DNA of 64,000 bases from Acutalibacteraceae bacterium (GTDB taxonomy: Bacteria; Bacillota; Clostridia; Oscillospirales; Acutalibacteraceae): positions 1,910-65,909 of the forward strand of contig JAZSAM010000040.1 of NCBI GenBank assembly GCA_045601905.1. The letters are read 5' to 3'. The notes below the pieces were generated by a model that worked only from the letters and a program-made list of their open reading frames with translations, did not search any database and was not told where the DNA came from. Shown here in pieces: positions 2,791-39,627 of the stretch; positions within the stretch are counted from its first letter, which is position 1, and every line of letters starts with the position of its first letter. A program made the translations under genes and the position numbers.

Positions 2791-4323
2791 ATGAAAAAAC
2801 CTGTATTATTATGTATCATGGACGGCTTCGGCAGAAATGACGAAGCTTACGGCAACGCAATCGAAGCTGCAGCAACTCCCAATCTCGATAAAATTATGAA
2901 GGAAAACCCTATGACCTTTATCGGTGCATCGGGTATGGATGTAGGTCTTCCCGACGGTCAGATGGGTAACAGCGAGGTTGGTCATACAAATATTGGTGCA
3001 GGCCGTGTTGTTTACCAGGAGCTGACCCGAATTACCAAGTCCATCAAGGACGGCGACTTCTTTAATAACGAGGCACTCAAGGGTGCAATGGAAAACTGCC
3101 TTAATAACGGCAGTGCACTTCACCTTATGGGTCTTATGAGTGACGGCGGTGTTCATTCACACAACACTCACATGTATGCTATTGTTGAAATGGCAAAGAA
3201 GATGGGACTTAAGGAGGTTTATGTTCACTGCTTCCTTGACGGACGTGACGTTCCTCCCGCATCAGGTGCTGACTTCGTTCAGGAAACCTGCGACAAGCTC
3301 AAGGAAATCGGTCTCGGTAAGGTTGCTACAGTAATGGGCAGATATTACGCTATGGACAGAGACAACCGTTGGGACAGAGTCGGCAAGGCTTATGCTGCAA
3401 TGGTTTACGGCGAAGGAATCAAGGCTGAATGTCCTGTTGCCGCAATCAAGGAAAGCTATGAAACAGTCGATGCTGACGGTAAAAACCTCACCGACGAGTT
3501 CGTTCTTCCCACCGTTTGTGCTGAAAATGCGTGCATCAAGGCAAACGACAGCGTTGTATTCTTCAATTTCCGCCCTGACAGAGCAAGAGAAATCACAAGA
3601 ACATTTGTTGATGAGGCATTTGACGGCTTTGAAAGAAGAAACGGCTTCTTCCCGCTTTACTATGTATGTATGACACAGTATGATGCAACAATGCCCAATG
3701 TTCATGTTGCCTTCAAGCCTCAGACTCTTGAAAACACCTTCGGTGAATACCTTGCAAAGATGGGCAAGACTCAGCTTCGCATTGCTGAAACTGAAAAATA
3801 TGCTCACGTAACCTTCTTCTTCAACGGTGGCGTTGAAAAGCAGTATGAGGGCGAGGACAGAATCCTTGTTGCTTCACCCAAGGTTGCAACCTACGACCTT
3901 CAGCCCGAAATGAGTGCTTATGAGGTAACCGAAAAGGTAACAGAGGCAATCAGAAGCGGTAAGTATGATGCAATCATTCTCAACTTTGCCAACTGTGACA
4001 TGGTAGGTCACACCGGTATCTTTGATGCTGCAAAGGCAGCTGTTGAAGCTGTTGACACCTGCGTAGGCAAGGTTTACGATGCAGTAAACGAAATGGACGG
4101 TGTAATGCTTATCACAGCTGACCACGGTAATGCCGATAAGATGTATGAAGCAGACGGTTCACCCTTTACTGCCCACACAACAAATCCCGTTCCCTTTGTA
4201 GTATGCGGTTGGGACTGTGAGCTTCGTGAGGGCGGAAAGCTTTGCGATATCGCTCCTACAATGCTCAAGATTATGGGACTCGAGCAGCCTGCAGAAATGG
4301 ATGGCGAAAGCATAATTAAATAA
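2791..4323 (+). CDS. gpmI: 2,3-bisphosphoglycerate-independent phosphoglycerate mutase
   Basis: MKKPVLLCIMDGFG...GNSEVGH...ADHGN are iPGM hallmarks. Start moved to ATG 2791, after aaaggag. Confidence 0.97.
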   Translation: MKKPVLLCIMDGFGRNDEAYGNAIEAAATPNLDKIMKENPMTFIGASGMDVGLPDGQMGNSEVGHTNIGAGRVVYQELTRITKSIKDGDFFNNEALKGAMENCLNNGSALHLMGLMSDGGVHSHNTHMYAIVEMAKKMGLKEVYVHCFLDGRDVPPASGADFVQETCDKLKEIGLGKVATVMGRYYAMDRDNRWDRVGKAYAAMVYGEGIKAECPVAAIKESYETVDADGKNLTDEFVLPTVCAENACIKANDSVVFFNFRPDRAREITRTFVDEAFDGFERRNGFFPLYYVCMTQYDATMPNVHVAFKPQTLENTFGEYLAKMGKTQLRIAETEKYAHVTFFFNGGVEKQYEGEDRILVASPKVATYDLQPEMSAYEVTEKVTEAIRSGKYDAIILNFANCDMVGHTGIFDAAKAAVEAVDTCVGKVYDAVNEMDGVMLITADHGNADKMYEADGSPFTAHTTNPVPFVVCGWDCELREGGKLCDIAPTMLKIMGLEQPAEMDGESIIK

Positions 4324-26310: not shown

Positions 26311-27843
26311 TCAGGCTGACTGTTCAGCACTTTCTCTCTTTTCACGGATGAAAGCGTAGATAGGCTCGAGTCTTTCCTTTGTAAGAGGATAACCGAATCT
26401 CATAAGAAGCCATACGCCTGTGTAAACAACAGCAGGGATGATTGTGCAGATAAACATAATCTTCTTACTTGTGTCGTTTGCTGTGATAAAGCCGTTGCCT
26501 GCAGTTTCGCTGTCGTACTTTGCCCACTGAAGAAGGAAGAGCCCTGCGCCGTCAGCGATGGTCTGACCGAGCTTACGTGAGAAGGTGTAAACGGCATAAA
26601 CTGCGCTTTCGTTACGAAGACCTGTTGTGTATTCCTGATAATCGATAACATCCATAACAACTGCCCAGCAGGTAAGACTTACGAAGGTGTAGCCGAAGCC
26701 GATGAGAAGAAGACAAGCCATAAACATCCATGCAGGGAAGATGCCGTTTTCGGGATTGAGCTTGTCAATGATGCTCTGATTGTTTGCACAAACAGCAAGA
26801 GCAACGGAAGCGATTGCGGAAATGATTGAGAATTTACCGCAAAGCTCCTTCTTACCAAACTTTGCAGAAAGCTTGGGAGTGAAGAGCACGAGGCAAACCA
26901 TAGGAAGATAGTTGCAGATTGTGCCGAGAATGCTCAGGCTTGTGTTTGTGAAGTAGTTCTTATAAAGATAAGCGTTGAAGGAATTGAACTGAAGCTGACC
27001 GCTAATGAGAACACCTGCAAGTGCAACCGTTACGAAAGGACGGGACTTGAGAAGTCCGATGTAGGTCTTCTTGAGATCCATCTGAGGCTCTGCTTCTGAG
27101 GGAACTCGTTCCTTGGTGGTCTTGTAGCCCCAGAGATAGAAGATGATTGAAAGAATACCCATAATCACACCGAAGATGCACATCTTTGTGCCGTCGGCAA
27201 TCTCAACAGCCTTGCCCGTTGTCTGGTCAATGACCTCAACCATCTGATTTGTGGCAGGGTCAAGCTGAAGCTTTGTGGAGTAAATTACCATCGGTGCGAT
27301 AAGTGAAACAACAGCGCCGCCGATGCCTGAGCCGATTGAACGGAAGGTTGAAAGCAGGTTTCTGCCGTTGGGATCGTCGGTGATAACCGAAGCGAGTGAG
27401 CCGAAGGGAATGTTCATTCCGGTGTACATCATTCCGTAGAAGATGTAAGTTATGTAGGCAATAATGAGAAGTATGGTGGTGTTGTCTGTAAGCCTGTCAT
27501 AGGGCATAAAGCAAAGAAGTGTTGAAAGACCGAGCGGGATCGAAACCCACTTAAGATAAGGTCTGAACTTGCCGTCCTTGCTGGGCGGTCTTTTTGCAAC
27601 CATTGCACCCCAGATGGGGTCATTGATGCAGTCCCACAGACGGGTGATAATAAACATAAAGCCCGCCTTTGCCGGTGCGATTTTAAGCACGTCAGTCATG
27701 AAAACCTTAAGATAGCTTGAAATGTATGTAAGGTTAAACATATTGCCGGCCTCGGCAATGGTGTAGCCCGCAGCTTCCTTGATACCGATTTTATTCGGAT
27801 GGTCATTTACAGGCTTTTCTTTTTTGACTTTTTCTTTTGCCAT
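26311..27843 (-). CDS. GPH/MFS-family glycoside-pentoside-hexuronide:cation symporter
   Basis: About 12 TM segments. The DPIWG motif in loop 2-3 (RLWDCINDPIWGAMVAK) is typical of the GPH family. Confidence 0.85.
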   Translation of the reverse strand: MAKEKVKKEKPVNDHPNKIGIKEAAGYTIAEAGNMFNLTYISSYLKVFMTDVLKIAPAKAGFMFIITRLWDCINDPIWGAMVAKRPPSKDGKFRPYLKWVSIPLGLSTLLCFMPYDRLTDNTTILLIIAYITYIFYGMMYTGMNIPFGSLASVITDDPNGRNLLSTFRSIGSGIGGAVVSLIAPMVIYSTKLQLDPATNQMVEVIDQTTGKAVEIADGTKMCIFGVIMGILSIIFYLWGYKTTKERVPSEAEPQMDLKKTYIGLLKSRPFVTVALAGVLISGQLQFNSFNAYLYKNYFTNTSLSILGTICNYLPMVCLVLFTPKLSAKFGKKELCGKFSIISAIASVALAVCANNQSIIDKLNPENGIFPAWMFMACLLLIGFGYTFVSLTCWAVVMDVIDYQEYTTGLRNESAVYAVYTFSRKLGQTIADGAGLFLLQWAKYDSETAGNGFITANDTSKKIMFICTIIPAVVYTGVWLLMRFGYPLTKERLEPIYAFIREKRESAEQSA

Positions 27844-27866
27844 TTCAATTCTCCTTTATATAAGAT

Positions 27867-28097
27867 TCAACCGAAAAGTCCGGTCTTGACGGTGATTTCC
27901 CCGGGAATGAAGCCTTCCTTTTCAATAGCTTCAATAAAGAGCTTTTCGTCAATGTCCTTTTTCATTGTGACGGTAACTGCGTTTTTTTCACTGTCAGCCT
28001 TAACCTTTGAAACGCCGTCAAGAGCCTTTATGGCATCTTCAACTGCTTTTTCGCAGTGACCGCAATGCATACCGGTAACTTCGATAATTTTTTTCAT
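27867..28097 (-). CDS. copZ: heavy-metal-associated domain copper chaperone
   Basis: GMHCGHCEKAV is an MxCxxC motif. Start moved to ATG 28097, after aaagga. Confidence 0.9.
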   Translation of the reverse strand: MKKIIEVTGMHCGHCEKAVEDAIKALDGVSKVKADSEKNAVTVTMKKDIDEKLFIEAIEKEGFIPGEITVKTGLFG

Positions 28098-28175
28098 TGT
28101 CTTCATCCTTTCAAAAGATAATGTATAAATATACACTATATAGGATACACCGAAAGAAAGAAAAAATCAACATCA

Positions 28176-28224
28176 AAGCAGAATTTTCATTAATTTTTAA
28201 AAGCAGAATTTTGATTAATTTTTA
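28176..28224 (+). repeat. two 24-nt direct repeats (period 25) in the copZ upstream region
   Basis: AAGCAGAATTTTcATTAATTTTTA / AAGCAGAATTTTgATTAATTTTTA. Confidence 0.7.
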
Positions 28225-28236
28225 TTTCTGCATTTT

Positions 28237-28511
28237 AGGTTGGCGAGCATAAATCCGAACTCGCCTAAAAGTGTGACTTTTTGAGCCTTTTCGGCGTTTC
28301 GGACTTGAAAGGCGACAGCCTGTCGGCATCCTCAACATCCAAAAAGCCTTACAAAAATTCGCACTTTTGGGTCTGATGATTTTTTACAGAGCGAATTTTT
28401 GTCAAGACAAGGCACAAAACGCAGTAAATCCTTTCGGATTTGCGAGTATTTTAACAAGGGATTGACGAAAATCCGCCTGTAAAAACGGGTTCGGATTATA
28501 CTCGTCAACCT
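28237..28511 (+). mobile_element. MITE-like element A, copy 1 (275 bp, ~24-bp terminal inverted repeats)
   Basis: Left end is AGGTTGGCGAGCATAAATCCGAAC and right end is GTTCGGATTATACTCGTCAACCT. Near-identical to 28789-29064 and to the reverse complement of 30649-30924. No ORF. Confidence 0.6.
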
Positions 28512-28513
28512 AA

Positions 28514-28786
28514 GGTGACAGTATTCGAACCAAATAAGGTTTAATTGGGCATATTTTCACCGTAACAGCGTTAAAAAGCCTTGAAAGGCGCGAGTCTTCC
28601 TGCGGTTTTTGCCTTGTTACGATAAAAATCTTCTCCCATTAAACTTCGAAGGATCTTAAATGTTCAGGTTGTAGTGCATTTGAGATTTTCTTCGACGAAG
28701 TAATACTCGCGTATTGCGAGGAGAAAAAATTTCAAAGGTGCTGCAAATCGTACATTTAAGACTCATTTGGTTCGATTGCTGTCACC
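28514..28786 (+). repeat. element B (273 bp, 22-bp terminal inverted repeats) nested between A1 and A2
   Basis: Ends are GGTGACAGTATTCGAACCAAAT and ATTTGGTTCGATTGCTGTCACC, matching at 20 of 22 positions. Single copy in this window. Confidence 0.5.
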
Positions 28787-28788
28787 TT

Positions 28789-29064
28789 AGGTTGACGAGC
28801 ATAAATCCGAACTCGCCTAAAAGTGTGAATTTTTGAGCCTTTTCGACGTTTCGGACTTGAAAGGCGGCAGCCTGTCGGCATCCTCAACATCCAAAAAGCC
28901 TTACAAAAATTCGCACTTTTGGGTCTGTTGATTTTTTACAGAGCGAATTTTTGTCAAGACAAGGCACAAAACGCAGTAAATCCTTTCGGATTTGCGAGTA
29001 TTTTAACAAAGGATTGACGAAAATCCGCCTGTAAAAAACGGGTTCGGATTATACTCGTCAACCT
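28789..29064 (+). mobile_element. MITE-like element A, copy 2
   Basis: Differs from A1 at roughly 7 positions by eye. Confidence 0.6.
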
Positions 29065-29190
29065 ATGCGTCTTTATTCAGTTTTAAATTATAACACAAGC
29101 AAAAAATTAAGTCCACAATTTGACGCTTTTTAATAAAAAATCAGTAAATTAACCATATAAAATTCACTCCTTTTGGTCAAAACGACAAAA

Positions 29191-29481
29191 GGGGATGTAA
29201 AAAAAACTCGTTTTTTTACATCTCCTTTTTAGGGGCTGGGAAAAAATGCGCAGAATGAACAAACCGAGCCAAAATAAAGCGTTCAGCTTTATTTTGGCTT
29301 GCCCGACGGCGTACAAAGGTACTTAAGAGGGCGAGGTTTGTTTATAGCATAAAAGGCAAAAACCTTGTTTTTGCCTGCTTTTGCTGATTTTTACAGTTTT
29401 AAAGGGTTTCTTTGGTAGTTCAATACCGAAAGAAACCCTTTAGTTATCTTGTTTTATGCGGTCTGCACTTTTATTACAGCC
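29191..29481 (+). repeat. repeat family C copy 3
   Basis: Same architecture as copies 1 and 2. The internal pseudo-ORF is broken by a small insertion that creates a TAA stop. Confidence 0.85.
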
Positions 29482-29553
29482 ACTTTTGATATTCCGTCAG
29501 TCATAAGGGTTATCACTATAGCCCTTCAACTGTACCGAAGTGTACGAATTAAA

Positions 29554-30006
29554 TTAATCGTTGTCTACCTGAATGATTTCAACGTCTACAATGTAATCAG
29601 CAGCGTTTTCAGCAGTGATAAGAACACCGTTTACTGTAACATTCTTGAGCATTGCTCTGCTGCCTATTGTATCGCAGTTGTTAACAATAAGCTTACCGCC
29701 TTCGGGAAGAGTGATGTCAGCATTAACAATCATAATAACATTGTTTTCTTCAAGAACAACTAACTCTTCAACAGTTGCAGTAATGTCTCCGATATAAATC
29801 GGTCCGCCGATATTCTGCTGAACGAAAAGCATGCTTTCTGCTTCTACTACAAGATTCTCATAGCTGTAGGTTGCATAACGATCTGCATCCTTACCGATAA
29901 CGATGGTTTCTGTTACATCAGGCTTAACCTCAGGCTCTGTGGGCTCTGTTGAAGGCTCTGAGGGCTGAGTAACAACTTCGCCGTCACCGTAGGTAGCATT
30001 AGCATC
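29554..30006 (-). other. 150-codon open extension in frame with, and directly after, the TAA of the TasA-like gene 30007-30573
   Basis: There is no stop and no ATG/GTG/TTG for the first 58 codons after the TAA. It encodes a Pro/Glu/Thr linker plus a domain homologous to the C-terminus of 30946-31539 (MLF..TLP..GK.I..NVTVNG..IT.EN). Confidence 0.6.
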
Positions 30007-30573
30007 TTACTGATTGTCATAGCCGTCATATTCGTAAGAAAGCTGTGCAGCCTTTACAGTGATTGAAATGCCTTCGATAGTCTTGTTCTGATATTCGTTG
30101 TCTGCTTCTTCGTCCATGTGAGCAACGATTACAAGCTTTTCGCTTTCTTCAGGAAGAAGAGTGCCTTCGAAATCAGCAACATCGATTTCTTCACCGGCAA
30201 CTGATACCTTGAAGGTGATAACATCAAGAAGTTTTACGTCGCCGTCGATTCCGTTAACAATAACCTTATACTTAAGAGCAAGGTTGCCGTTGTTCTTGAT
30301 GTAAGCATCAGCTGTTTCATAAGTACAACCGGGCTCCCAAAGAACTTCATCGTTGCCTTCTGCCTTTACCCATTCAAGTGATTCGCCTTCAAGATCGTTG
30401 TCTTCTGCGTCTTCAAGAGCAACATCAAGAATACCTGACTGGATTGTGTTTCCCTTTGTGTTTGCTTCGTCTGTGAACCATGCAAATGTTGTGCCGATAA
30501 ACATTACTGCACAAAGGAAAATGGAAATAATGCTTGAAACAAGTGCATACTTCGTTGTTTTTGTGTTTCTCAT
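30007..30573 (-). CDS. TasA/camelysin-like protein with SipW-cognate signal peptide
   Basis: N-terminus ..IGTTFAWFTDEANT..., then WEPGCTYETADAYIKNNGNLALKYKV, a TasA-like beta-sandwich signature. RBS aaggagg. Confidence 0.8.
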   Translation of the reverse strand: MRNTKTTKYALVSSIISIFLCAVMFIGTTFAWFTDEANTKGNTIQSGILDVALEDAEDNDLEGESLEWVKAEGNDEVLWEPGCTYETADAYIKNNGNLALKYKVIVNGIDGDVKLLDVITFKVSVAGEEIDVADFEGTLLPEESEKLVIVAHMDEEADNEYQNKTIEGISITVKAAQLSYEYDGYDNQ

Positions 30574-30648
30574 TAGAATTACCTCCTTTTTTATTTTTGT
30601 TAAGAGAAACTTATATATCGAGCGACCTTACCGTCGCTTGGATATCTT

Positions 30649-30924
30649 AGGTTGGCAAGTATAATCCGAACCCGTTTTTGGCAGGCGGATTTTCGCCAAT
30701 CCTTTGTTAAAATACTCGTAAACCCGAAAGGATTTACTGCGTTTTGTGCCTTGTCTTGACAAAAATTCGCTCTGCAAAAAAACATCAGACCCAAAAGTGC
30801 GAATTTTTGTAAGGCTTTTTGGATGTTGAGGATGCCGACAGGCTGCCGCCTTTCAAGTCCGAAACGCCGAAAAGGCTCAAAAAGTCACACTTTTAGGCGA
30901 GTTCAGATTTATGCTCGTCAATCT
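30649..30924 (-). mobile_element. MITE-like element A, copy 3 (inverted relative to A1/A2), inside the operon
   Basis: Its reverse complement aligns end to end with A1 and A2, with scattered substitutions. It lies between the stop of 30946-31539 and the start of 30007-30573. Confidence 0.6.
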
Positions 30925-30945
30925 AACCCTTATTTGCCCGATCGA

Positions 30946-31539
30946 TCACATAAAAATTACTTTTTTTATGCCGGTTAAATACTGTGAATAGTTTTCTTTG
31001 GTAATTTTTTCTCCGTTTACGGTGACATTAAATAAAACAACCTGAATGTCAGAATCACCGTTTATACTGATAATTTTACCGTCTGCCGGAAGAGTAAAAT
31101 CACAATTACTGAATGAAATAATTTCGGCTGAAGCATCATCTTCAATTACAATAACATCATCAACATCAGCCGAAATACCTGTAAGAAAAAGCATATTTAT
31201 TTCAGCTTTTAAACTGGCAACAGCCCTTGCTTCAACTGTCTCACCTTCAATGAAAACATCACTGTCAGAATCGTATTTATCGCCCTCTATGACTATAAAG
31301 AAGACTTCACTCTCTTCAGCCGGAGTTTTTGTCGTCGGTTCAGTTATAGTTTCCTTTTCAGTAGTGGGTTCTTCGGTTGCGGGTTCTTTTCTGAACTCAC
31401 CTGCACTGATATCCTCAACATTCACCTTTGCCCCGTCTGTATACCAGGCAAAGGTTGTCCCAATAAGCATCACGGAACACAGTACTATTGAAATAATACT
31501 GCTTATGAACGCCTGGGTTGTTAATTTGTATTTTCTCAA
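30946..31539 (-). CDS. secreted protein: SipW-type signal peptide, Thr/Glu/Pro linker and a C-terminal domain shared with 29554-30006
   Basis: TTG start after ggaggg. N-terminus is IGTTFAWYTDGAKV. There is no TasA core between the signal peptide and the linker. Confidence 0.7.
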   Translation of the reverse strand: MRKYKLTTQAFISSIISIVLCSVMLIGTTFAWYTDGAKVNVEDISAGEFRKEPATEEPTTEKETITEPTTKTPAEESEVFFIVIEGDKYDSDSDVFIEGETVEARAVASLKAEINMLFLTGISADVDDVIVIEDDASAEIISFSNCDFTLPADGKIISINGDSDIQVVLFNVTVNGEKITKENYSQYLTGIKKVIFM

Positions 31540-31604
31540 GTCCTTTCCCTCCGTTTCATTTTCTGAGAGAATCTGTATTTTTTGTTCATTCCTTGATTTT
31601 ACAA

Positions 31605-32351
31605 TCAGACCTCTGCTGTTGCCTCGGCCTCTTCGGGATTTTCGATAACTTCCTCGACTTCATCCGTAAAATCGTCCGTAAAGAGCTTTTCACCTAATTG
31701 CTTTTTAAGAGCCATAAGCTCTTCCATCATTTTCTCGCTCTTTTCGCGCTCCTTCTGAAGCTCTGCCTTCTGAACTTCAAGCTCCTTAAGCTGCTCATCC
31801 TTGTACTTTCTGAAAAGTCTGACACAACTGATGCCCTGTGAAAGAATGAGGATAAAGAAGGGAAGGAATATACACATTATATAACCGGGAACGGTTTTAA
31901 TATAATTGAAGAATGTACCGACCTTCGGAATGCTGAACTCATACTTACCTACAATGTACGGATAGGTTACTACCTTTTCATCGTCGGTATCAGTCGTTGT
32001 ACCGTAGGTGATGAAGCCGGGATTTCCGTGCTCATCCTTTGCAGGCTTTCTGATTTTATGAGTAATTGTTTCACCGTAATTCTCAAAGCTTTGTGACATA
32101 TAGGAAATTATGTCACCGGCTTTAAGCTCTGAGTAATCCTTAACCTCTTTTACGAAAATGAGGTCACCTGCACCAAAATCCGTCTTGCTCATTGAATCGG
32201 AAAGGACAATGAATGCCTTGTAGCCGAAAAGAGAACGGTCATTGCGATTGAAGGTGTTGACGGAAATGATTGTAAAAATCATCATTCCCACGGCGATGCA
32301 CACAACAAGAGCCACAAAAACTCTTCTGATAATATCAAATGCTTTTTTCAT
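31605..32351 (-). CDS. sipW: signal peptidase I, SipW (ER/archaeal) type, with a ~68-aa charged coiled-coil tail
   Basis: N-terminal TM segment, SDSMS catalytic-Ser box, ITHKI His box, second TM segment, then KDEQLKELEVQKAELQKEREKSEKMMEEL... Confidence 0.85.
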   Translation of the reverse strand: MKKAFDIIRRVFVALVVCIAVGMMIFTIISVNTFNRNDRSLFGYKAFIVLSDSMSKTDFGAGDLIFVKEVKDYSELKAGDIISYMSQSFENYGETITHKIRKPAKDEHGNPGFITYGTTTDTDDEKVVTYPYIVGKYEFSIPKVGTFFNYIKTVPGYIMCIFLPFFILILSQGISCVRLFRKYKDEQLKELEVQKAELQKEREKSEKMMEELMALKKQLGEKLFTDDFTDEVEEVIENPEEAEATAEV

Positions 32352-32353
32352 AA

Positions 32354-32896
32354 TCAGTCAAAAACCTTCTCTGTATTATTTCTTGTCTGAACTGACTTTG
32401 CGTAGAAGATGAAGGAAAGACCCTTTGACTGAAAATCATTACCTGAATCCTCGGGGAAGTGGAAAATAATTTTCAGGTCGCGCCTTTCGCCAAGGGCAAG
32501 TACATCATCCACGGCTTCTTTTTCCTCGGTAAGCTCGTTTATCTTACCTGAAAGAAGAACCTTTTCCCCGTCCTTGATTGTTATTTCAAGAGCATCGGCA
32601 AGCTCGCCTGAAACCTCCTTGAAATATAACTTGTAATAAATTTCATCGCTTCCTGTGTTTTCAACGAAGAAATCCTTTTCAACGGTCATACCGGGCTCAA
32701 AAAGGAATTCGTCAGACTCAATCACGGGCTCTCCGTCATTGAGATTGATGCCTACGCCGCCTGTCCGGAAGGTGTTTCCGCCTACGGTTACCGAAAGGAA
32801 AAGAACTGCAAAGGTTGTTATGCAAAGACAGCCTATAAGTCCGATAATCAGCATTATACCTGCGGAAAGCTTTCTTGATGTCTTATCAGCAGCCAT
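32354..32896 (-). CDS. TasA/camelysin-like secreted protein
   Basis: Start taken as MAADKTSRK at 32896. FEPGMTVEKDFFVENTGSDEIYYKLYF is the TasA-like core. Confidence 0.75.
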   Translation of the reverse strand: MAADKTSRKLSAGIMLIIGLIGCLCITTFAVLFLSVTVGGNTFRTGGVGINLNDGEPVIESDEFLFEPGMTVEKDFFVENTGSDEIYYKLYFKEVSGELADALEITIKDGEKVLLSGKINELTEEKEAVDDVLALGERRDLKIIFHFPEDSGNDFQSKGLSFIFYAKSVQTRNNTEKVFD

Positions 32897-33752
32897 GAGC
32901 CTCCTCCCTTCTCTTTCTGAGTGAAAGAACAAATACTGTGGAAGAAACCGCAAGAACTGCAATTATTATTCCTATCTGTGTTGAATCGCCCGTATCCGGC
33001 GGGTCAATAAGCTCACCCGGCGGAGGGTTCTTTCTTGTTGTCGATTCGGTTGTTGTCTCAGCTGTCGGTTCGGTTGTCGGCTCAGAGGTTGCCTCTGTCT
33101 CTGATTCACTGACTGTCTCACTTGTGGACTCGGTTTCAGACTCACTTGTGGATTCAGTTGTGGATTCAGTTGTGGATTCAGTAGTTGATTCGGTAGTTGA
33201 TTCGGTAGTAGACTCTGTTGTTGTCTCCTCTTCCTCTTCAACCCACCATTTGAAATCGCAGATGAGCTCCTTGTACTGATACTCGTTACCGACGCTTGTA
33301 TCAAGGTATACTATAATATCGTATACAAGAGTCTGTGTTGTCTTTTCCTCACTGGAAATTTCCGTGTCAACACACTCCGGCATATCCTTCATAAGTCCGT
33401 CATAAAGAGGCTCCTCGCTACCGTCAAGGATCAGCTTACATTTAAGAACCTCTGCGAGCTTTTCATAGCCGGGGTAAATAACTGTTGAAAAATGAACGGT
33501 AAGGGTTCCGACAAAGGAAACATCCAGCTTATATGTTCCCTTTACTTCGTCTCCGGGGAACATATTTACTGCATTGAAACGGAATTTCTCAATGGGATTG
33601 TTTTTATAAAGCGCAAGTGAAACCTCTCCTGACTGAGCCGTGAGTCTGTTGCCGTATGCAGCCGATGCCGTACCTGTACAAAAAGCAAGCATACTGAAAA
33701 CGAAAAACACAGCAATCATAAGGGAAAGCTTTTTAATGCTTCTTTGCTTCAT
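32886..33752 (-). CDS. secreted TasA-like-fold protein with a (TEST)n linker and an LPXTG-like cell-wall sorting signal
   Basis: Sec signal peptide ...CTGTASAAY. MFPGDEVKGTYKLDV core. TESTTESTTEST repeats. C-terminus PPDTGD plus IGIIIAVLAVSSTVFVL plus RKRREE. ATG at 33752 follows aggagg. Confidence 0.8.
   Translation of the reverse strand: MKQRSIKKLSLMIAVFFVFSMLAFCTGTASAAYGNRLTAQSGEVSLALYKNNPIEKFRFNAVNMFPGDEVKGTYKLDVSFVGTLTVHFSTVIYPGYEKLAEVLKCKLILDGSEEPLYDGLMKDMPECVDTEISSEEKTTQTLVYDIIVYLDTSVGNEYQYKELICDFKWWVEEEEETTTESTTESTTESTTESTTESTTESTSESETESTSETVSESETEATSEPTTEPTAETTTESTTRKNPPPGELIDPPDTGDSTQIGIIIAVLAVSSTVFVLSLRKRREEAHGC
33147..33216 (-). repeat. 12-nt tandem repeat (about 6 units) encoding (TEST)n
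   Basis: The plus strand reads tgtggattcagt / tgtggattcagt / ... / agttgattcggt. Confidence 0.8.
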
Positions 33753-33841
33753 TGTCAATCTCCACCTCCTGGTTATATTATCATTCTGGTATTGAGAAAG
33801 GTGTAGGAATATGCACGGATATCCGACTTATAAGTTGTATA

Positions 33842-33870
33842 ATTATACACCAGCACCCATCCGATTTCAA
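33842..33870 (-). promoter_or_regulatory. sigma-A-like promoter of the TasA/SipW operon
   Basis: The minus strand reads TTGAAA, 17-nt spacer, TATAAT, about 90 nt upstream of the first ATG. Confidence 0.6.
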
Positions 33871-34351: not shown

Positions 34352-34867
34352 ATGAGAGAACTTTTTCTCTCAGAAAGGAGAATTACCATCAAAAACGAAA
34401 TTACAAGCAAAGAAAAACTCTTTTGCACCTATTACAGTCTCAACTGTAATGCAAGAGAAGCTGCAGCAAAATCCGGTTACATTTTCCCGGAAAAAAGTGC
34501 ACTCAGACTACTGAAAAGAAAGGAGATACGAGCCTTCATTGATGAGCTTGACAAGCAGCGAAGGAGCAACAGAAAGGATATAGCCCGTGGCTATGAAAGA
34601 CTCGCCTTCGGCTGTGTCAGCGATGCAATAAGGCTGATGTTTGCAGATAATGTGAATGCAGACGAGCTTGACCGGATGGATCTTTTCAACATTTCCGAAA
34701 TCAAAAGAAAAAAAGGCGGTGACATCGAAATCAAATTCTTTGACCGCATAAAGGCTCTTGAAAAGCTTCATCTTATGAGCGACGAAAAAGACTGTCTTAC
34801 GGGTAAGTCACTTTACTCGGCAATTGCTTATTCAGCAGCAGCACTGAAGGAGGATGAGCTTGGGTAA
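34352..34867 (+). CDS. phage terminase small subunit
   Basis: KEKLFCTYYSLNCNAREAAAKSGY is the HTH typical of the Terminase_2 family. Lies directly upstream of terL. The start codon is uncertain. Confidence 0.75.
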   Translation: MRELFLSERRITIKNEITSKEKLFCTYYSLNCNAREAAAKSGYIFPEKSALRLLKRKEIRAFIDELDKQRRSNRKDIARGYERLAFGCVSDAIRLMFADNVNADELDRMDLFNISEIKRKKGGDIEIKFFDRIKALEKLHLMSDEKDCLTGKSLYSAIAYSAAALKEDELG

Positions 34868-36119
34868 CCGTAATTTTTCTGCTTTTTCAAAAAAGCAGCT
34901 TGTCGCACTCTGCTGGTGGCACGATGAATCCCCCTTTTGCAGCAGGGACGGGATCATCTGCGACGGCGCAGTCAGAAGCGGCAAAACCACCTGTATGTCA
35001 CTTTCCTTTGTCTCATGGGCTTTTTACAGCTTTGACGACACCTCCTTTGCAGTTTGCGGCAAAACCATCACCTCATTAAGGCGTAACATCATCACGGAGC
35101 TTTTGCCCCGCCTGAGAGGTCTCGGCTTTGAATGCAAGGAAAGGCTCAGTCAGAACATGATCGAAATAACCCTTGAGGACAGAACGAACAGATTCTATCT
35201 TTTCGGAGGCCGTGACGAAGGCTCTGCTTCTCTTATTCAGGGTATGACTTTGGGTGGTGTTCTCCTTGACGAAGTTGCTCTCATGCCCCGTTCCTTTGTT
35301 GAACAGGCTCTGGCACGTTGCTCCCTTGCGGGCTCAAAATTCTGGTTTAACTGTAACCCCGAAAATCCGATGCATTGGTTTTACAAGGAGTGGATACTAA
35401 AGCACAGAGAAAAGAACTGTCTTTATGTTCACTTTCTGATGTCCGACAATCCCTCACTTTCACCGAAAATGATCAGCCGCTACGAAAACCTTTACAGCGG
35501 CACCTTTTATGAAAGATTTGTTCTCGGGAAATGGGTTGCCGTTGACGGCCTTGTTTACCCCGATGCGGCACAGGGGAAATACACAGTAAATCCACCCGTA
35601 CAGAGCTTTGAAAAGTATTATGTCTCCTGTGATTACGGGACTGTCAACCCCACCTCAATGGGGCTGTGGGGACTTTATGACGAGGTCTGGTACCGCATTG
35701 ACGAATACTATTTCGACTCAAGGAAACAGGGCAGGCAGAAAACCGATGAAGAATATTATGAGGATCTTCTTTCCTTTACAGAGGGTAAAACAATCGCTTC
35801 GGTAATAATCGATCCCTCTGCCGCATCCTTCATCGAGTGCATCTGCCGACACGGAAAATTCAGTGTCACTCCTGCAAGAAACGATGTTACTGACGGTATC
35901 CGCAAGGTGCAAAGCGCCTTTCGTGACGGAAAAATCCGCATTTCCCCCTGCTGTAAAAGTGCAATCAGGGAATTCTCCCTTTACCGCTGGGATGAGAGTG
36001 CAAAAAAGGATGCTCCGAAAAAAGAAAACGACCACGCCATGGATGAAATCAGGTACTTCGTTCTGAATGTGCTTTCCTCGCAGGATGACGGATTTTTCGC
36101 CCTTGCATCAAGCAGATAA
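34854..36119 (+). CDS. phage terminase large subunit
   Basis: Walker A sequence GAVRSGKT, Walker B-like sequence VLLDE, and a C-terminal nuclease-like region with DHAMDEIRY. Confidence 0.9.
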   Translation: MSLGNRNFSAFSKKQLVALCWWHDESPFCSRDGIICDGAVRSGKTTCMSLSFVSWAFYSFDDTSFAVCGKTITSLRRNIITELLPRLRGLGFECKERLSQNMIEITLEDRTNRFYLFGGRDEGSASLIQGMTLGGVLLDEVALMPRSFVEQALARCSLAGSKFWFNCNPENPMHWFYKEWILKHREKNCLYVHFLMSDNPSLSPKMISRYENLYSGTFYERFVLGKWVAVDGLVYPDAAQGKYTVNPPVQSFEKYYVSCDYGTVNPTSMGLWGLYDEVWYRIDEYYFDSRKQGRQKTDEEYYEDLLSFTEGKTIASVIIDPSAASFIECICRHGKFSVTPARNDVTDGIRKVQSAFRDGKIRISPCCKSAIREFSLYRWDESAKKDAPKKENDHAMDEIRYFVLNVLSSQDDGFFALASSR

Positions 36120-36158
36120 ATTCGGAAAATCTTTGTTTCCGGGAAAGGAGAAAAAAAT

Positions 36159-37331
36159 TTGGCAATCGGAAAAAGAAAAAAAGACTCTCCCGAAAGTGCC
36201 GTTGTGGCAGTCCCGCAGACCTCAGGCTCATCCCATCCCTTTGTGAGCCTGAGCAGCTATAATCCTGTTTCATCGGCTGATATGGCACTTTTCAAGTCAC
36301 TGAGAGAAGCCATTCCCGTAATTGACGCCGCCATCTTCAAGATCATCCGTCTCATCGGCTCCTTTACGGTTGAGTGCGAAAACAAAGAAGCAGGAAAGGC
36401 TCTGGCCAACTTTCTCAGAAATGTCAATGTCGGTGGCACCCGTCAGGGAATTGATGCTTTCATTTCAACCTTTCTTGAGCAGCTTCTGACCTACGGCACT
36501 GCTATCGGTGAAATGATTACTGACGGAGACACCGTCACCCATCTTTACAACGCCGATCTGAAATGCGTATCCCTTTCTGAAGGAAGCAGTGCTCTTGACA
36601 TCACCGTAAGCACAGATAAGGGAAACGGCACCTTTACTCCCGTTAAGTATCCTGCCCTCATCCTGCTTTCCGTGCACAACCCCGAGCCGGGCAAGATTTA
36701 CGGCACCTCGATTCTCAAGGGACTTCCCTTTGTAAGCGACATTCTTCTGAAAATTTACAACACCATCGGCACAAACTGGGAAAGAGTCGGCAACGTGCGC
36801 TTCGCCGTTACCTACAAGCCCCAGAACGATGTTATGGACAAGGCTTACGCAAAGGAAAGAGCAATGCTCGTGGCAAACGAATGGAGCAAGGCAATGAGCT
36901 CGGGGAGTTCGGCGGCAAAGGACTTTGTTGCCGTAGGCGATGTCAGCATTAAGGCAATCGGTGCAGACAATCAGATTCTCGACAGTGAAATTCCCGTAAG
37001 GCAGATGCTCGAGCAGATAATTGCAAAAATCGGCATTCCTCCCTTCCTGCTCGGTCTTAACTGGTCAACTACGGAACGAATGAGCTATCAGCAGGCTGAT
37101 ATTCTCACAAGCGAAATCGAATTTTACCGCCGTGAGCTTAATCCCATTATCTCACAGATCTGCCGCCTTTTCTTAAGGCTCAACGGCTTCGACTGTGACT
37201 TTGACATCAACTGGGAGCACATAACGCTTCAGGACATCACGGAAATTGCACGAAGCCGTTACCTTGACGCACAGACAAGAAAAATTGACTATGAAACAGG
37301 AGGTGAAGCCAATGAATCAGGCACCCAATAA
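36159..37331 (+). CDS. phage portal protein
   Basis: Size and position after terL fit a portal, and the sequence character is portal-like. TTG start. Confidence 0.7.
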   Translation: MAIGKRKKDSPESAVVAVPQTSGSSHPFVSLSSYNPVSSADMALFKSLREAIPVIDAAIFKIIRLIGSFTVECENKEAGKALANFLRNVNVGGTRQGIDAFISTFLEQLLTYGTAIGEMITDGDTVTHLYNADLKCVSLSEGSSALDITVSTDKGNGTFTPVKYPALILLSVHNPEPGKIYGTSILKGLPFVSDILLKIYNTIGTNWERVGNVRFAVTYKPQNDVMDKAYAKERAMLVANEWSKAMSSGSSAAKDFVAVGDVSIKAIGADNQILDSEIPVRQMLEQIIAKIGIPPFLLGLNWSTTERMSYQQADILTSEIEFYRRELNPIISQICRLFLRLNGFDCDFDINWEHITLQDITEIARSRYLDAQTRKIDYETGGEANESGTQ

Positions 37332-38253
37332 CACTCCCGACGCAAGTGACCTTGAGCTTATAAACACCTACACACGCAATCCCATTTCAGTTGATGAGGT
37401 TTACTGCTTCAATCTCACCCTCTGCGACAACGAGGTTGACCGGGACTTCGAACGCTTTTCCGTTGACGCTCTCAAGGGACTTTGTGAGCTTTTCCCCGGA
37501 AGAACAGGCATCTGCGACCATAATATGAGCGCTAAAAATCAGATGGCCCGTATTTTCAGAACCTGGCTCGAGGAGGACAGCACAAAAAAGACCTCTGTGG
37601 GTGAAGCCTATGTAGCATTAAGGGCAAAGGCCTATATGCTCAGAACAAAGGAAAACGAGGAGCTTATTTCCCAGATTGAAGGCGGCATCAAAAAGGAGGT
37701 AAGCGTAGGCTGCTCAATGAAAAATGTCACCTGCTCAATCTGCGGTAAGGACATGAAAGGCCACGAATGCAGTCACATCAAGGGAAAGCACTACGGCAAA
37801 AAGCTCTGTCACGGAATTCTTGACAACGCAAACGATGCTTACGAATGGTCTTTTGTCGCCGTACCTGCACAAAAGAACGCAGGCGTTACAAAGGCCTTTT
37901 CTCCCGAAAAAGAAAAAGACGCCGTCGTATCTGATTCCTCAGACAGCATTTATACCGACAAGGTTCTCTGCTCAAAGGAGCACCTGAGTCAGCTTGAAGG
38001 CCTCGCGCAGGACGGAAGGCTTTACAGAGACGAGCTAAAAAAACAAATGAAGAAGTACGCACTTATTGCTATGCCTAAGGTAACAGCCGAAAGCATAATT
38101 GCAGCCTGCGAGGGTATGGAAACCTCCGCACTCAAGGCTCTTACCGACGGACTCAGAGCGCAGGCAGGGGAGATAATTCCCGTAACTCTTCAGCTTCGTG
38201 AGTTAAATGAAAAAAAGACAAAAAACTTCAACAACAATGCTTTTAAAATTTAA
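37312..38253 (+). CDS. putative prohead protease with C-terminal scaffold-like coiled coil
   Basis: ATG 37312 follows aggagg. VDRDFERFS...GICDHN...EVSVGCS resembles the spacing of S78-type prohead protease motifs. The C-terminal half is charged and helical. Confidence 0.5.
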   Translation: MNQAPNNTPDASDLELINTYTRNPISVDEVYCFNLTLCDNEVDRDFERFSVDALKGLCELFPGRTGICDHNMSAKNQMARIFRTWLEEDSTKKTSVGEAYVALRAKAYMLRTKENEELISQIEGGIKKEVSVGCSMKNVTCSICGKDMKGHECSHIKGKHYGKKLCHGILDNANDAYEWSFVAVPAQKNAGVTKAFSPEKEKDAVVSDSSDSIYTDKVLCSKEHLSQLEGLAQDGRLYRDELKKQMKKYALIAMPKVTAESIIAACEGMETSALKALTDGLRAQAGEIIPVTLQLRELNEKKTKNFNNNAFKI

Positions 38254-38265
38254 GGAGGATTTTTT

Positions 38266-38607
38266 ATGAACGCACTTTTAAACGGCTTTGACACAAATGA
38301 GGCCACTTTCAGAACAATGACCAAGCTTTCACCCAACAGAGCGGTGGCACTCAGCAGCGACGGTACTCTTTTTTATCCCTTAAGCGGAAAATTTACAGGT
38401 ATACTCACTTCCTGCAAGGATAATATCGGCTCCGTTGTAATGAGAGGCTATGCAGTAGCCGAATTCAAAAGCACCGTCCCCTCAGTCGGTATCTGCAATC
38501 TCGCTCCCACACCCACAGGTTACATGGAGGTTGACGATACAAACGGTAAGCCCTATACCGTTGTGGGCGTTGATCTTATTAACAAAACTATTGAATTTAT
38601 TCTCTAA
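38266..38607 (+). CDS. phage head-associated hypothetical protein
   Basis: RBS aaggagg. Lies between the protease and capsid genes. Confidence 0.55.
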   Translation: MNALLNGFDTNEATFRTMTKLSPNRAVALSSDGTLFYPLSGKFTGILTSCKDNIGSVVMRGYAVAEFKSTVPSVGICNLAPTPTGYMEVDDTNGKPYTVVGVDLINKTIEFIL

Positions 38608-38622
38608 GAGGAGGAAAACGAA

Positions 38623-39627
38623 ATGAATTTTGATAACATCAGACTCGATAAAGGACTTTACACCACCGGCAAGAGCTTCACTCAGGCGCTTGAAGAGATT
38701 GACCCCAGCGAAAACTACATAGGCACAGAGCTTGAAGGGCTCGACGCCTTCCAGCGTCAGCTCAAGCGCTTTGACATCAAGGTCAGCGGCAAAAACAGCG
38801 ACCCTATCGAAAAGTTTTTCAGAACAACCGATTCAGCTGCCCTTTTCCCTGAATATATTTCACGCTCCGTTGCTCAGGGCGTTGATTCAACAGACATTCT
38901 TGATTCAATTGTTGCCACAACAACAAAAATTGAAGGTCTTGATTACCGTTCAGTAACAACCGAAAATTGCGAGGATGCATACCAGCCCTCAGTCATCGCA
39001 GAAGGTGCTTTTGTACCTGAAACAAAAATTGTCACAAAGGACAAGCTTGTCCACCTTCATAAGTGCGGCAGAATGCTTAGCGCCTCCTACGAAGCAATCC
39101 GCTTCCAGAGAATCGACCTTTTCACTGTCGCTCTCAGACAGATCGGTATCGGCATTGCACGTGCCCAGCTTGCAGATGCAATTGAAGTTCTTATTTACGG
39201 TGCTTCCGACTCCGCACCTGCAAAAACGGTTACCGCTGAAAATTCAACCGTATCCTTCGCAAATCTTCTCAAGCTCTGGGATGCTCTTTCTCCCTATAAT
39301 CTCTCAACTCTCATTGCTTCACCTGATGTAATGCTCAAGCTTCTCGCTCTTCCCGAATTCAGAGACAGCTACAAGGGTCTCGATTTCCACGCATCAGGCA
39401 AAATGATCACTCCTCTCGGTGCCGAGCTCTTCAAGCACGAGCCTCTCAATGCAGACACGCTTCTTGCCCTCGACAAGACCTGCGCTCTTGAAAAAATCGA
39501 AGCAATGCCCGTTACTACAGAATTTGACAAGCTTATTGACCGTCAGCTTGAAAGAGCCTCAATCACAACGATTGCCGGCTTCTCAAAGATTTTTGAAGGT
39601 GCTTGTGCAGTAATGAGCTTCGAATAA
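38623..39627 (+). CDS. phage major capsid protein
   Basis: 334 aa, RBS gaggagg, in the canonical position after protease/scaffold. No close family recalled. Confidence 0.65.
   Translation: MNFDNIRLDKGLYTTGKSFTQALEEIDPSENYIGTELEGLDAFQRQLKRFDIKVSGKNSDPIEKFFRTTDSAALFPEYISRSVAQGVDSTDILDSIVATTTKIEGLDYRSVTTENCEDAYQPSVIAEGAFVPETKIVTKDKLVHLHKCGRMLSASYEAIRFQRIDLFTVALRQIGIGIARAQLADAIEVLIYGASDSAPAKTVTAENSTVSFANLLKLWDALSPYNLSTLIASPDVMLKLLALPEFRDSYKGLDFHASGKMITPLGAELFKHEPLNADTLLALDKTCALEKIEAMPVTTEFDKLIDRQLERASITTIAGFSKIFEGACAVMSFE

Follow-up and report, generated by a model that had tools for sequence, protein, structure and literature searches.

A young nonsense mutation probably splits the last gene of a putative sipW fibre operon in an Acutalibacteraceae bacterium

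The last gene of a putative fibre operon containing sipW is divided by a single in-frame TAA codon in the 64,000-nt stretch of Acutalibacteraceae DNA analysed here, which is called the window (assembly GCA_045601905.1, contig JAZSAM010000040.1, positions 1,910 to 65,909). This gene, the focal gene, occupies 29554-30573 of the window on the minus strand and encodes a TasA-like subunit. The evidence favors an ordinary young nonsense truncation, or pseudogene, of a two-domain fibre-subunit gene over regulated readthrough, with a probability of about 0.75. The initial annotation of this DNA had considered that a very recent nonsense mutation split a TasA-linker-domain fusion, and this proposal is strongly supported by the fused orthologues, by the tyrosine found at the stop position in 47 of 48 relatives and by the TAT codon of the closest strain, contig L058. 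The parts of the split gene are as follows, aa denoting amino acids and ORF an open reading frame.

30582..30588 (-): Shine-Dalgarno sequence AAGGAGG, 8 nt 5' of the ATG, read from the sequence.
30010..30573 (-): translated part of the split gene, 188 aa, with a SipW-type signal peptide, a donor-strand-like N-terminus and a TasA-like beta-sandwich, assigned from the ORF, profiles and a model.
30007..30009 (-): premature TAA (ochre) in place of the conserved Tyr codon at the end of the TasA-like domain; context CAG-TAA-GAT.
29917..30006 (-): Pro/Glu/Thr-rich flexible linker, remnant codons 3' of the stop, from the translation.
29557..29916 (-): remnant codons of domain X, a predicted C-terminal beta-solenoid module of ~115 aa with an invariant NVTVNG motif.
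29554..29556 (-): original TAA, which terminated the ancestral gene at its full length; in the alignment the orthologues end here too.
29554..29832 (-): 92-aa ATG-initiated ORF within the remnant, probably untranslated, from the ORF listing.

Translation of 29554-30573 on the minus strand gives 188 aa ending in YDGYDNQ, the TAA at 30007-30009, 150 sense codons and the TAA at 29554-29556. The 150 codons past the first stop are referred to as the extension. Their translation includes ...VVTQPSEPSTEPTEPEVKPD..., followed by a domain that matches the C-terminal domain of the neighbouring gene at 30946-31539 (BLASTP E = 8e-12, 32% identity and 56% positives over 118 aa). The first ATG, GTG or TTG past the stop is at 29832 in the ORF listing, which leaves 58 codons without a start. 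The stop-free extension, its start-less beginning, the Pro/Glu/Thr-rich linker and the homology to the neighbour had all been reported in the initial annotation and are borne out. The signature that it gave for the two domains holds in part: TLP..GK and NVTVNG..IT.EN are aligned, but 'MLF' is unaligned between the two proteins. Inter-stop stretches of at least 150 codons number 58 of 5747 in the six frames of the window, and the extension is collinear end to end with the C-terminal halves of uninterrupted orthologues; for these reasons its length exceeds chance. One stop lies between two long open stretches at four other places in the window. The gene caller of the public record likewise gives a 188-aa and a 92-aa product.

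Uninterrupted orthologues were found in the protein database with both halves joined as the query, that is, with the reconstructed 338-aa product. Those spanning 98-99% of it are P0001 (342 aa, 67% identity), P0003 (330 aa), P0004 (340 aa, from an Acutalibacteraceae metagenome-assembled genome, MAG) and P0005 (330 aa). In the alignment all of them read ...YD(S)YDNQ-Y-DA(N/D)A... across the stop position. At the orthologous loci the codon is indeed a sense codon, a check that had been proposed earlier: a 51-sequence family alignment, with 48 relatives scored at the stop column, has Tyr in 47 of the 48, whatever C-terminal domain comes after it (motif DNQ-Y-D). The 90%-identity cluster of the 188-aa product has P0121 as its sole other member, encoded on L058 (ENA ERZ27316004, 4.1 kb). 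This contig has the operon of the window with the gene order unchanged and 96-97% nucleotide identity; its codon at the stop position is TAT, as against TAA in the window, and its frame runs on into the start of the linker. With Tyr in the relatives and TAT in L058, the stop is shown to be derived and very young. It is a T-to-A transversion (TAT to TAA), more recent than the split between two strains of the same species.

Further strains were sought in several ways. Exact look-up of the 188-aa product found no contig on record. The best match in a scan of genome contigs for additional strains of the species had 54% identity, and that in a scan of metagenome contigs had 38% identity over the TasA-like domain, with only short N-terminal fragments scoring higher. 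Queried with the extension alone, the protein database yielded P0008 and the 92-aa ORF of the window itself, and nothing else. The contig of a third strain, L078, stops just past the neighbour gene. The 3' end of L058 is unusual. Past its repetitive PSTEP linker, positions 3955-4134 are unrelated to the window or the fetched loci, and its focal gene ends at 237 aa without domain X. This tail has no match in the window, the fetched loci or the protein database; it may be a chimera of the assembly or may stem from a real rearrangement by which L058 lost domain X independently.

The extension itself is well preserved. Its long-term ratio of nonsynonymous to synonymous substitution rates (dN/dS) is 0.21 against the orthologue in L059, the contig of the intact P0001, and 0.26 against L001; the intact pair L059-L001 gives 0.31. 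At 18 well-conserved columns, domain X of the window has 2 private deviations, both conservative, and intact orthologues have as many or more. The extension was therefore long under purifying selection, until recently, and an undamaged domain X with a dN/dS of 0.21 fits a very recent lesion. As a separate observation on the same gene, dS against L059 is 0.40 for the TasA-like domain (30010-30573) and 1.39 for domain X (29557-29916), a contrast that suggests either strong codon constraint or a mosaic history in which the N-terminal domain recombined or underwent gene conversion.

The translated part has a different recent history. Between the window and L058 its TasA-like domain has 12 nonsynonymous and 2 synonymous changes (ratio 1.64), as against dN/dS values of 0.07, 0.12 and 0.26 for the three upstream operon genes (Fisher p = 0.0008 vs the TasA-like domain). 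Polarisation with outgroups assigns eight changes to the window (F25, K40, G41, D58, S124, D158, G184 and the stop), none clearly to L058, and leaves 4 ambiguous; the 8 vs 0 distribution gives p = 0.008 in a sign test. Conservation in the family is 85-100% at the columns hit by L25F, V41G, G158D and S184G. Neutral change could account for the 12:2 ratio (p = 0.75), which exceeds what the long-term ratio predicts (p = 0.02). The gene as a whole may be under relaxed constraint in the window lineage, as is suggested, though not proven, by this excess of window-specific replacements, several of them at conserved sites, and by an insertion just upstream that resembles a miniature inverted-repeat transposable element (MITE).

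30647..30926 (-): 280-bp MITE-like element between the stop of the neighbour gene and the ribosome-binding site of the focal gene; L058 has the empty site.

Further copies of this element (95% identity, opposite orientation) lie downstream of the focal gene at 28235-28514 and 28787-29065 (+), so that three copies within 3 kb bracket the gene in inverted orientation. No fourth copy is present within the window. The element has imperfect terminal inverted repeats of ~26 bp (TTAGRTTGRCRAGYATAAATCYGAAC), a pattern that is absent from all 77 loci examined, and it holds a weak terminator-like hairpin in the orientation of the gene. Its insertion may have lowered expression of the operon's last gene, which would explain relaxed constraint there. 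A second short inverted-repeat unit occurs between the two downstream copies, at 28496-28547 and 28753-28804.

The course of events would then be as follows. An ancestral single gene at the end of the sipW fibre operon would have encoded a signal peptide, a TasA-like beta-sandwich, a Pro/Glu/Thr linker and domain X. One TAT to TAA transversion would have turned the near-invariant Tyr after the beta-sandwich into an ochre stop. Translation would now stop at residue 188, the 450-nt remainder would be carried as untranslated 3' sequence, and domain X would be detached from the focal subunit. If constraint is relaxed, this would be the first stage of pseudogenisation; the lesion is probably a first step either of pseudogenisation or of domain loss.

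Several points weigh against this account. The 188-aa product keeps the whole signal peptide and beta-sandwich and could still serve as a plain subunit, and tRNA-Tyr may misread UAA at a basal rate, which would yield very small amounts of the wild-type protein. The neighbour gene is intact and also evolves fast (dN/dS vs L058 = 1.48, with derived changes on both lineages and hypervariable sites); rapid change may be normal for these surface proteins, through diversifying selection, and not a sign of decay. In the available sequences the critical codon is covered by one other strain of the species, L058, and the TAA base call is that of an assembly consensus.

An adaptive origin of the truncation is unlikely, but several of the same observations can be read in its favor. 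The nonsense change would have been favored because it leaves a working, undecorated fibre subunit of 188 aa, and the replacements would reflect diversifying selection on an exposed protein. The cut falls exactly at the domain boundary, the C-terminal modules of the family are highly variable (330-577 aa, with differing domains), and the gene after sipW in L001 and L002 ends in a linker. The neighbour gene, besides its dN/dS of 1.48, has three residues in three close strains at each of two sites, and the focal gene of L058 too loses the register of domain X inside the linker, at a junction that may be an assembly artefact. What counts against selection for the short form is the nature of the changes: derived replacements have struck the near-invariant G158 (EEAGNEYQ motif), S184 and L25, the derived changes are almost all on the window lineage, and the 12:2 ratio cannot be distinguished from the neutral one.

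Quite improbable is a sequencing or assembly error, or a minority allele in a MAG consensus, behind which the true codon would be TAT or TAC and the 338-aa gene intact. The difference is a single base, the sequence resembles an uncultured lineage of gut Clostridia known mostly from MAGs, and domain X is perfectly preserved, all of which would suit an error. Consensus substitution errors are rare, however, and the same 564-bp segment has seven other window-specific replacements while the three upstream genes have almost only synonymous differences, so that the segment seems to have truly diverged and not to be riddled with errors. The gene caller of the public record also arrived at the same division into 188 and 92 aa. 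A generally poor assembly is ruled out, since the three upstream operon genes differ from L058 mainly synonymously.

It is very unlikely that the TAA allele is a reversible one-base switch, or is decoded at a low level by tRNA-Tyr, so that bare subunits alternate with subunits decorated by domain X. If it were, domain X would be kept 3' of the stop by selection and not merely by the youth of the lesion, and it would be under diversifying selection, perhaps as an adhesin or as a target of phage or of the immune system.

Still less probable is the leaky stop that had been offered as the second explanation, a programmed or leaky codon giving a major 188-aa subunit and a minor 338-aa subunit with domain X, for example as the tip or terminator of a fibre. 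In its favor, neither a stop nor other damage interrupts the frame of the extension, a tRNA-Tyr reading UAA as a near-cognate codon would give back the ancestral protein, and a modest stem-loop can form 15-130 nt 3' of the stop. The chief reason why the proposal is unsupported is that conservation would be expected of a programmed stop, and none of the relatives compared has this one, not even the 96-97% identical sister strain L058. TAA is in general the least leaky bacterial stop codon. It is also the main stop here: it ends 31 of the 39 long ORFs in the window, six of the 31 with the same following base as at 30007-30009 (TAA-G), which is thus a standard terminator. No tRNA gene, and so no suppressor tRNA, was found by ARAGORN in the 64-kb window, and no Rfam family matched in 27800-31700. 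The RNA downstream of the stop has a minimum free energy of -37.3 kcal/mol with a z-score of only -1.77 (about -1.8), and 11 of 200 shuffles fold as well. In addition, the operon already holds a separate gene that would supply domain X on a donor-strand-like N-terminus. Reassignment of the stop codon is ruled out, as TAA ends 31 of the 39 long ORFs, that of the extension among them.

Independent translation of the 92-aa protein from the ATG at 29832 has next to no likelihood: the ORF begins with ATG and is annotated in the public record, but no Shine-Dalgarno sequence precedes it (upstream sequence GTAGAAGCAGAAAGC), the ATG falls within the fold predicted for domain X, whose first strands the product would miss, and the product has no signal peptide, yet all homologues of the domain are C-termini of secreted proteins. 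With its 58 start-less codons as well, the downstream fragment has neither translation nor export signals of its own.

Domain X appears to be a small, unannotated C-terminal beta-solenoid module of ~115 aa, as judged from structural modelling. The AlphaFold2 model of the window extension has a predicted local distance difference test score (pLDDT) of 95-98 across the domain. Comparison of the domain model with the Protein Data Bank (PDB) gave no significant neighbour (best E = 0.1), and the weak matches are all right-handed beta-helices: lyases of families PL3 and PL6, tailspikes and ice-binding proteins. The domain is homologous to the C-termini of P0001, P0003, P0004, P0005, P0008 and P0014. 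A profile search of 1.84 billion representatives placed it in 111 clusters at 50% identity (P0123-P0229), almost always at the extreme C-terminus of proteins of up to 1256 aa. Sampled carriers are Peptidase_M73-like (camelysin-like) or DUF6562 proteins. No Pfam or NCBIfam model covering domain X was matched.

The neighbour gene combines domain X with a different N-terminal part.

30946..31539 (-): neighbour gene, 197 aa, with a near-identical SipW-type signal peptide, a donor-strand-like segment, a linker and domain X, and no beta-sandwich.

Its counterparts are at 2330-3184 in L058 and 1237-2103 in L078. The linker differs by 87 aa in length between close strains. At two sites flanking the invariant NVTVNG, three close strains carry F/S/G and K/N/D, as is typical where diversifying selection acts on surface proteins. 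The analogy of TapA (PMC9674648, PMC10151520) suggests that the neighbour protein could donate its strand and cap the fibre with domain X. Since the neighbour carries domain X, the strain would keep a route to its display without the focal gene. The L078 copy has TCA in place of the TGA stop and is extended by 4 residues. On L059, at ~440-570, the orthologue of the neighbour has a 1-nt frameshift in domain X (...GGKLVVKTGTK and a stop, then VDTMVIIQNVTVNGEKIT... in another frame); either this is an assembly error or a domain-X gene has been disrupted independently a second time.

The other features of the operon are given below.

33842-33870 (-): promoter-like site, 5' of the operon.
32886-33758 (-): LPXTG-anchored TasA-like subunit, 290 aa, with a Thr/Glu/Ser linker (TIGR01167, 19.6 bits, cut-off 15.9).
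32354-32896 (-): SipW-dependent TasA-like subunit of ~180 aa (PF12389; weak TIGR04090 match, 20.7 bits, far below the cut-off of 60).
31605..32351 (-): SipW-type (archaeal-type) signal peptidase I (TIGR02228, 62 bits, cut-off 51.85).
29267..29376 (-): two terminator-like hairpins beyond the ancestral stop, where the operon probably ends.

On the minus strand the order is promoter-like site, LPXTG protein, ~180-aa protein, SipW peptidase, neighbour gene, focal gene and terminator-like hairpins. The genes at 32354-32896 and 32886-33758 overlap slightly, and their dN/dS values vs L058 are 0.12 and 0.07, respectively. The gene order containing sipW is also found in L058, L001 and L002. The gene after sipW in L001 (4880-5863) and L002 (1576-2607) consists of a TasA-like domain and a long Thr/Ala-rich linker, with no terminal domain, and the window's gene for a strand, linker and domain X is not present in these two operons. 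The domain arrangements suggest extensive shuffling within this operon family. A hairpin, AGCGAC-GGTAAG-GTCGCT, lies at 30621-30638 (-), just 5' of the ribosome-binding site of the focal gene; it is kept in L058, and its L059 counterpart has the compensatory pair AGCGAT/ATCGCT. This hairpin may serve in attenuation within the operon or in RNA processing or stability. About 500 bp from the promoter region of the operon begin phage genes for the small and large terminase, portal and capsid, 34352-39627 (+), which indicate, from their sequences, a prophage or phage-derived island adjoining the fibre operon.

The label TasA-like, used in the initial annotation, has thin but consistent backing. The focal protein matches the SipW-dependent signal peptide model TIGR04088 (24 bits, cut-off 19, residues 23-47; P0001 scores 24.9 bits) and marginally PF12389 (Peptidase_M73/camelysin; 23.1 bits, cut-off 22.5), the latter over residues 11-56 only, which are mostly signal peptide. 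The AlphaFold2 model of P0001 has a signal helix, a disordered segment at 30-44, a beta-sandwich at 50-176, a disordered linker and a confident C-terminal domain. The disordered residues 30-44 are predicted to occupy the place of the TasA donor strand, and the linker is disordered in the models of both P0001 and the window extension (pLDDT ~50-66). Compared with the PDB, the P0001 model matches donor-strand pilins best, with 7ueg_A first (E = 1.4e-3) and chaperone-usher pilins next (E of these best matches 1e-3 to 1e-2); TasA itself (8AUR, 5OF1) is not one of the 50 best structural matches. Nothing was found when PDB sequences were searched with a profile. A link to TasA at the sequence level was rejected: hhalign, run with a TasA sequence verified as 8AUR, gave a probability of 1.7% and a match over the 24-column PG...NNGsLA motif only. 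Similarity to the TasA sequence is therefore negligible, but the SipW-type signal peptide and the pilin-like beta-sandwich of the model make TasA-like a reasonable working label for a likely mode of action, SipW processing and donor-strand polymerisation, not for demonstrated family membership. Such a mode of action has been shown for TasA (PMC9674648) and put forward for BsaA (PMC11580942).

Mechanistically the finding is minor: a textbook young nonsense mutation, and a reminder that an open extension past a stop need not mean readthrough. Its modest value is in the setting, where a modular surface-fibre protein would be caught just as it begins to lose a domain. Annotation should join the ORFs of 188 aa and 92 aa and mark them as a single disrupted gene. 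The SipW fibre operon around this gene is uncharacterised and would belong to a large uncharacterised family of SipW-dependent TasA-like proteins in gut Clostridia, matched by >6000 database proteins, with interchangeable C-terminal beta-helix modules. The locus also brings to light the unannotated C-terminal beta-solenoid domain and a TapA-like accessory protein, made of a strand plus a domain, with hypervariable sites.

The closest known counterpart of the operon is tapA-sipW-tasA of B. subtilis (PMC9674648, PMC10151520), in which TasA fibres are built by donor-strand exchange and a dedicated SipW is encoded among the genes for secreted subunits, as in the window. In both systems the secreted subunits have the signal peptide that goes with this peptidase (A-W/F-T/N-D region). 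The disordered N-terminal segment beside the beta-sandwich in the P0001 model sits where the donor strand of TasA is, the motif PG...NNG(S/N)LA(I/L)K is common to TasA and the focal family, and the neighbour gene would be an accessory protein with only the N-terminal strand region, as proposed for TapA. Unlike the subunits here, TasA has no Pro/Glu/Thr linker, C-terminal beta-solenoid or LPXTG anchor, and the fibres of the window are putative. Clostridium perfringens BsaA/BsaB/SipW (PMC11580942, PMC7395162) is likewise a clostridial sipW operon with several remote TasA homologues, and the weak TIGR04090 match of the subunit at 32354-32896 (20.7 bits vs 60) recalls BsaA; its von Willebrand A partner was not found at the window locus. 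The archaeal bundling pilin AbpA (7UEG; PMC9245690), a TasA-like donor-strand pilin, is the top structural match with a target TM-score of 0.42. The match is weak (10% identity, root-mean-square deviation 10.6 A), AbpA belongs to another domain of life, and it has no C-terminal module.

The stop codon can be compared with two kinds of system. The A1 protein of phage Qbeta is a minor extended structural protein made by readthrough of UGA. The layout of such programmed systems is the same as here, a structural subunit, one in-frame stop and a C-terminal extension useful at low copy. Their stop, in contrast, has been conserved and is a leaky one, UGA or, where the context favours it, UAG, whereas that of the window is TAA-G, occurs in one strain and replaces a conserved Tyr. 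Ordinary bacterial nonsense pseudogenes and split genes share with the focal gene the derived base change, the intact orthologues and a downstream part without translation signals, and likewise the signs of relaxed constraint and a nearby mobile-element insertion; the focal gene departs from them in no essential point, but its lesion is unusually young, with the downstream domain still pristine.

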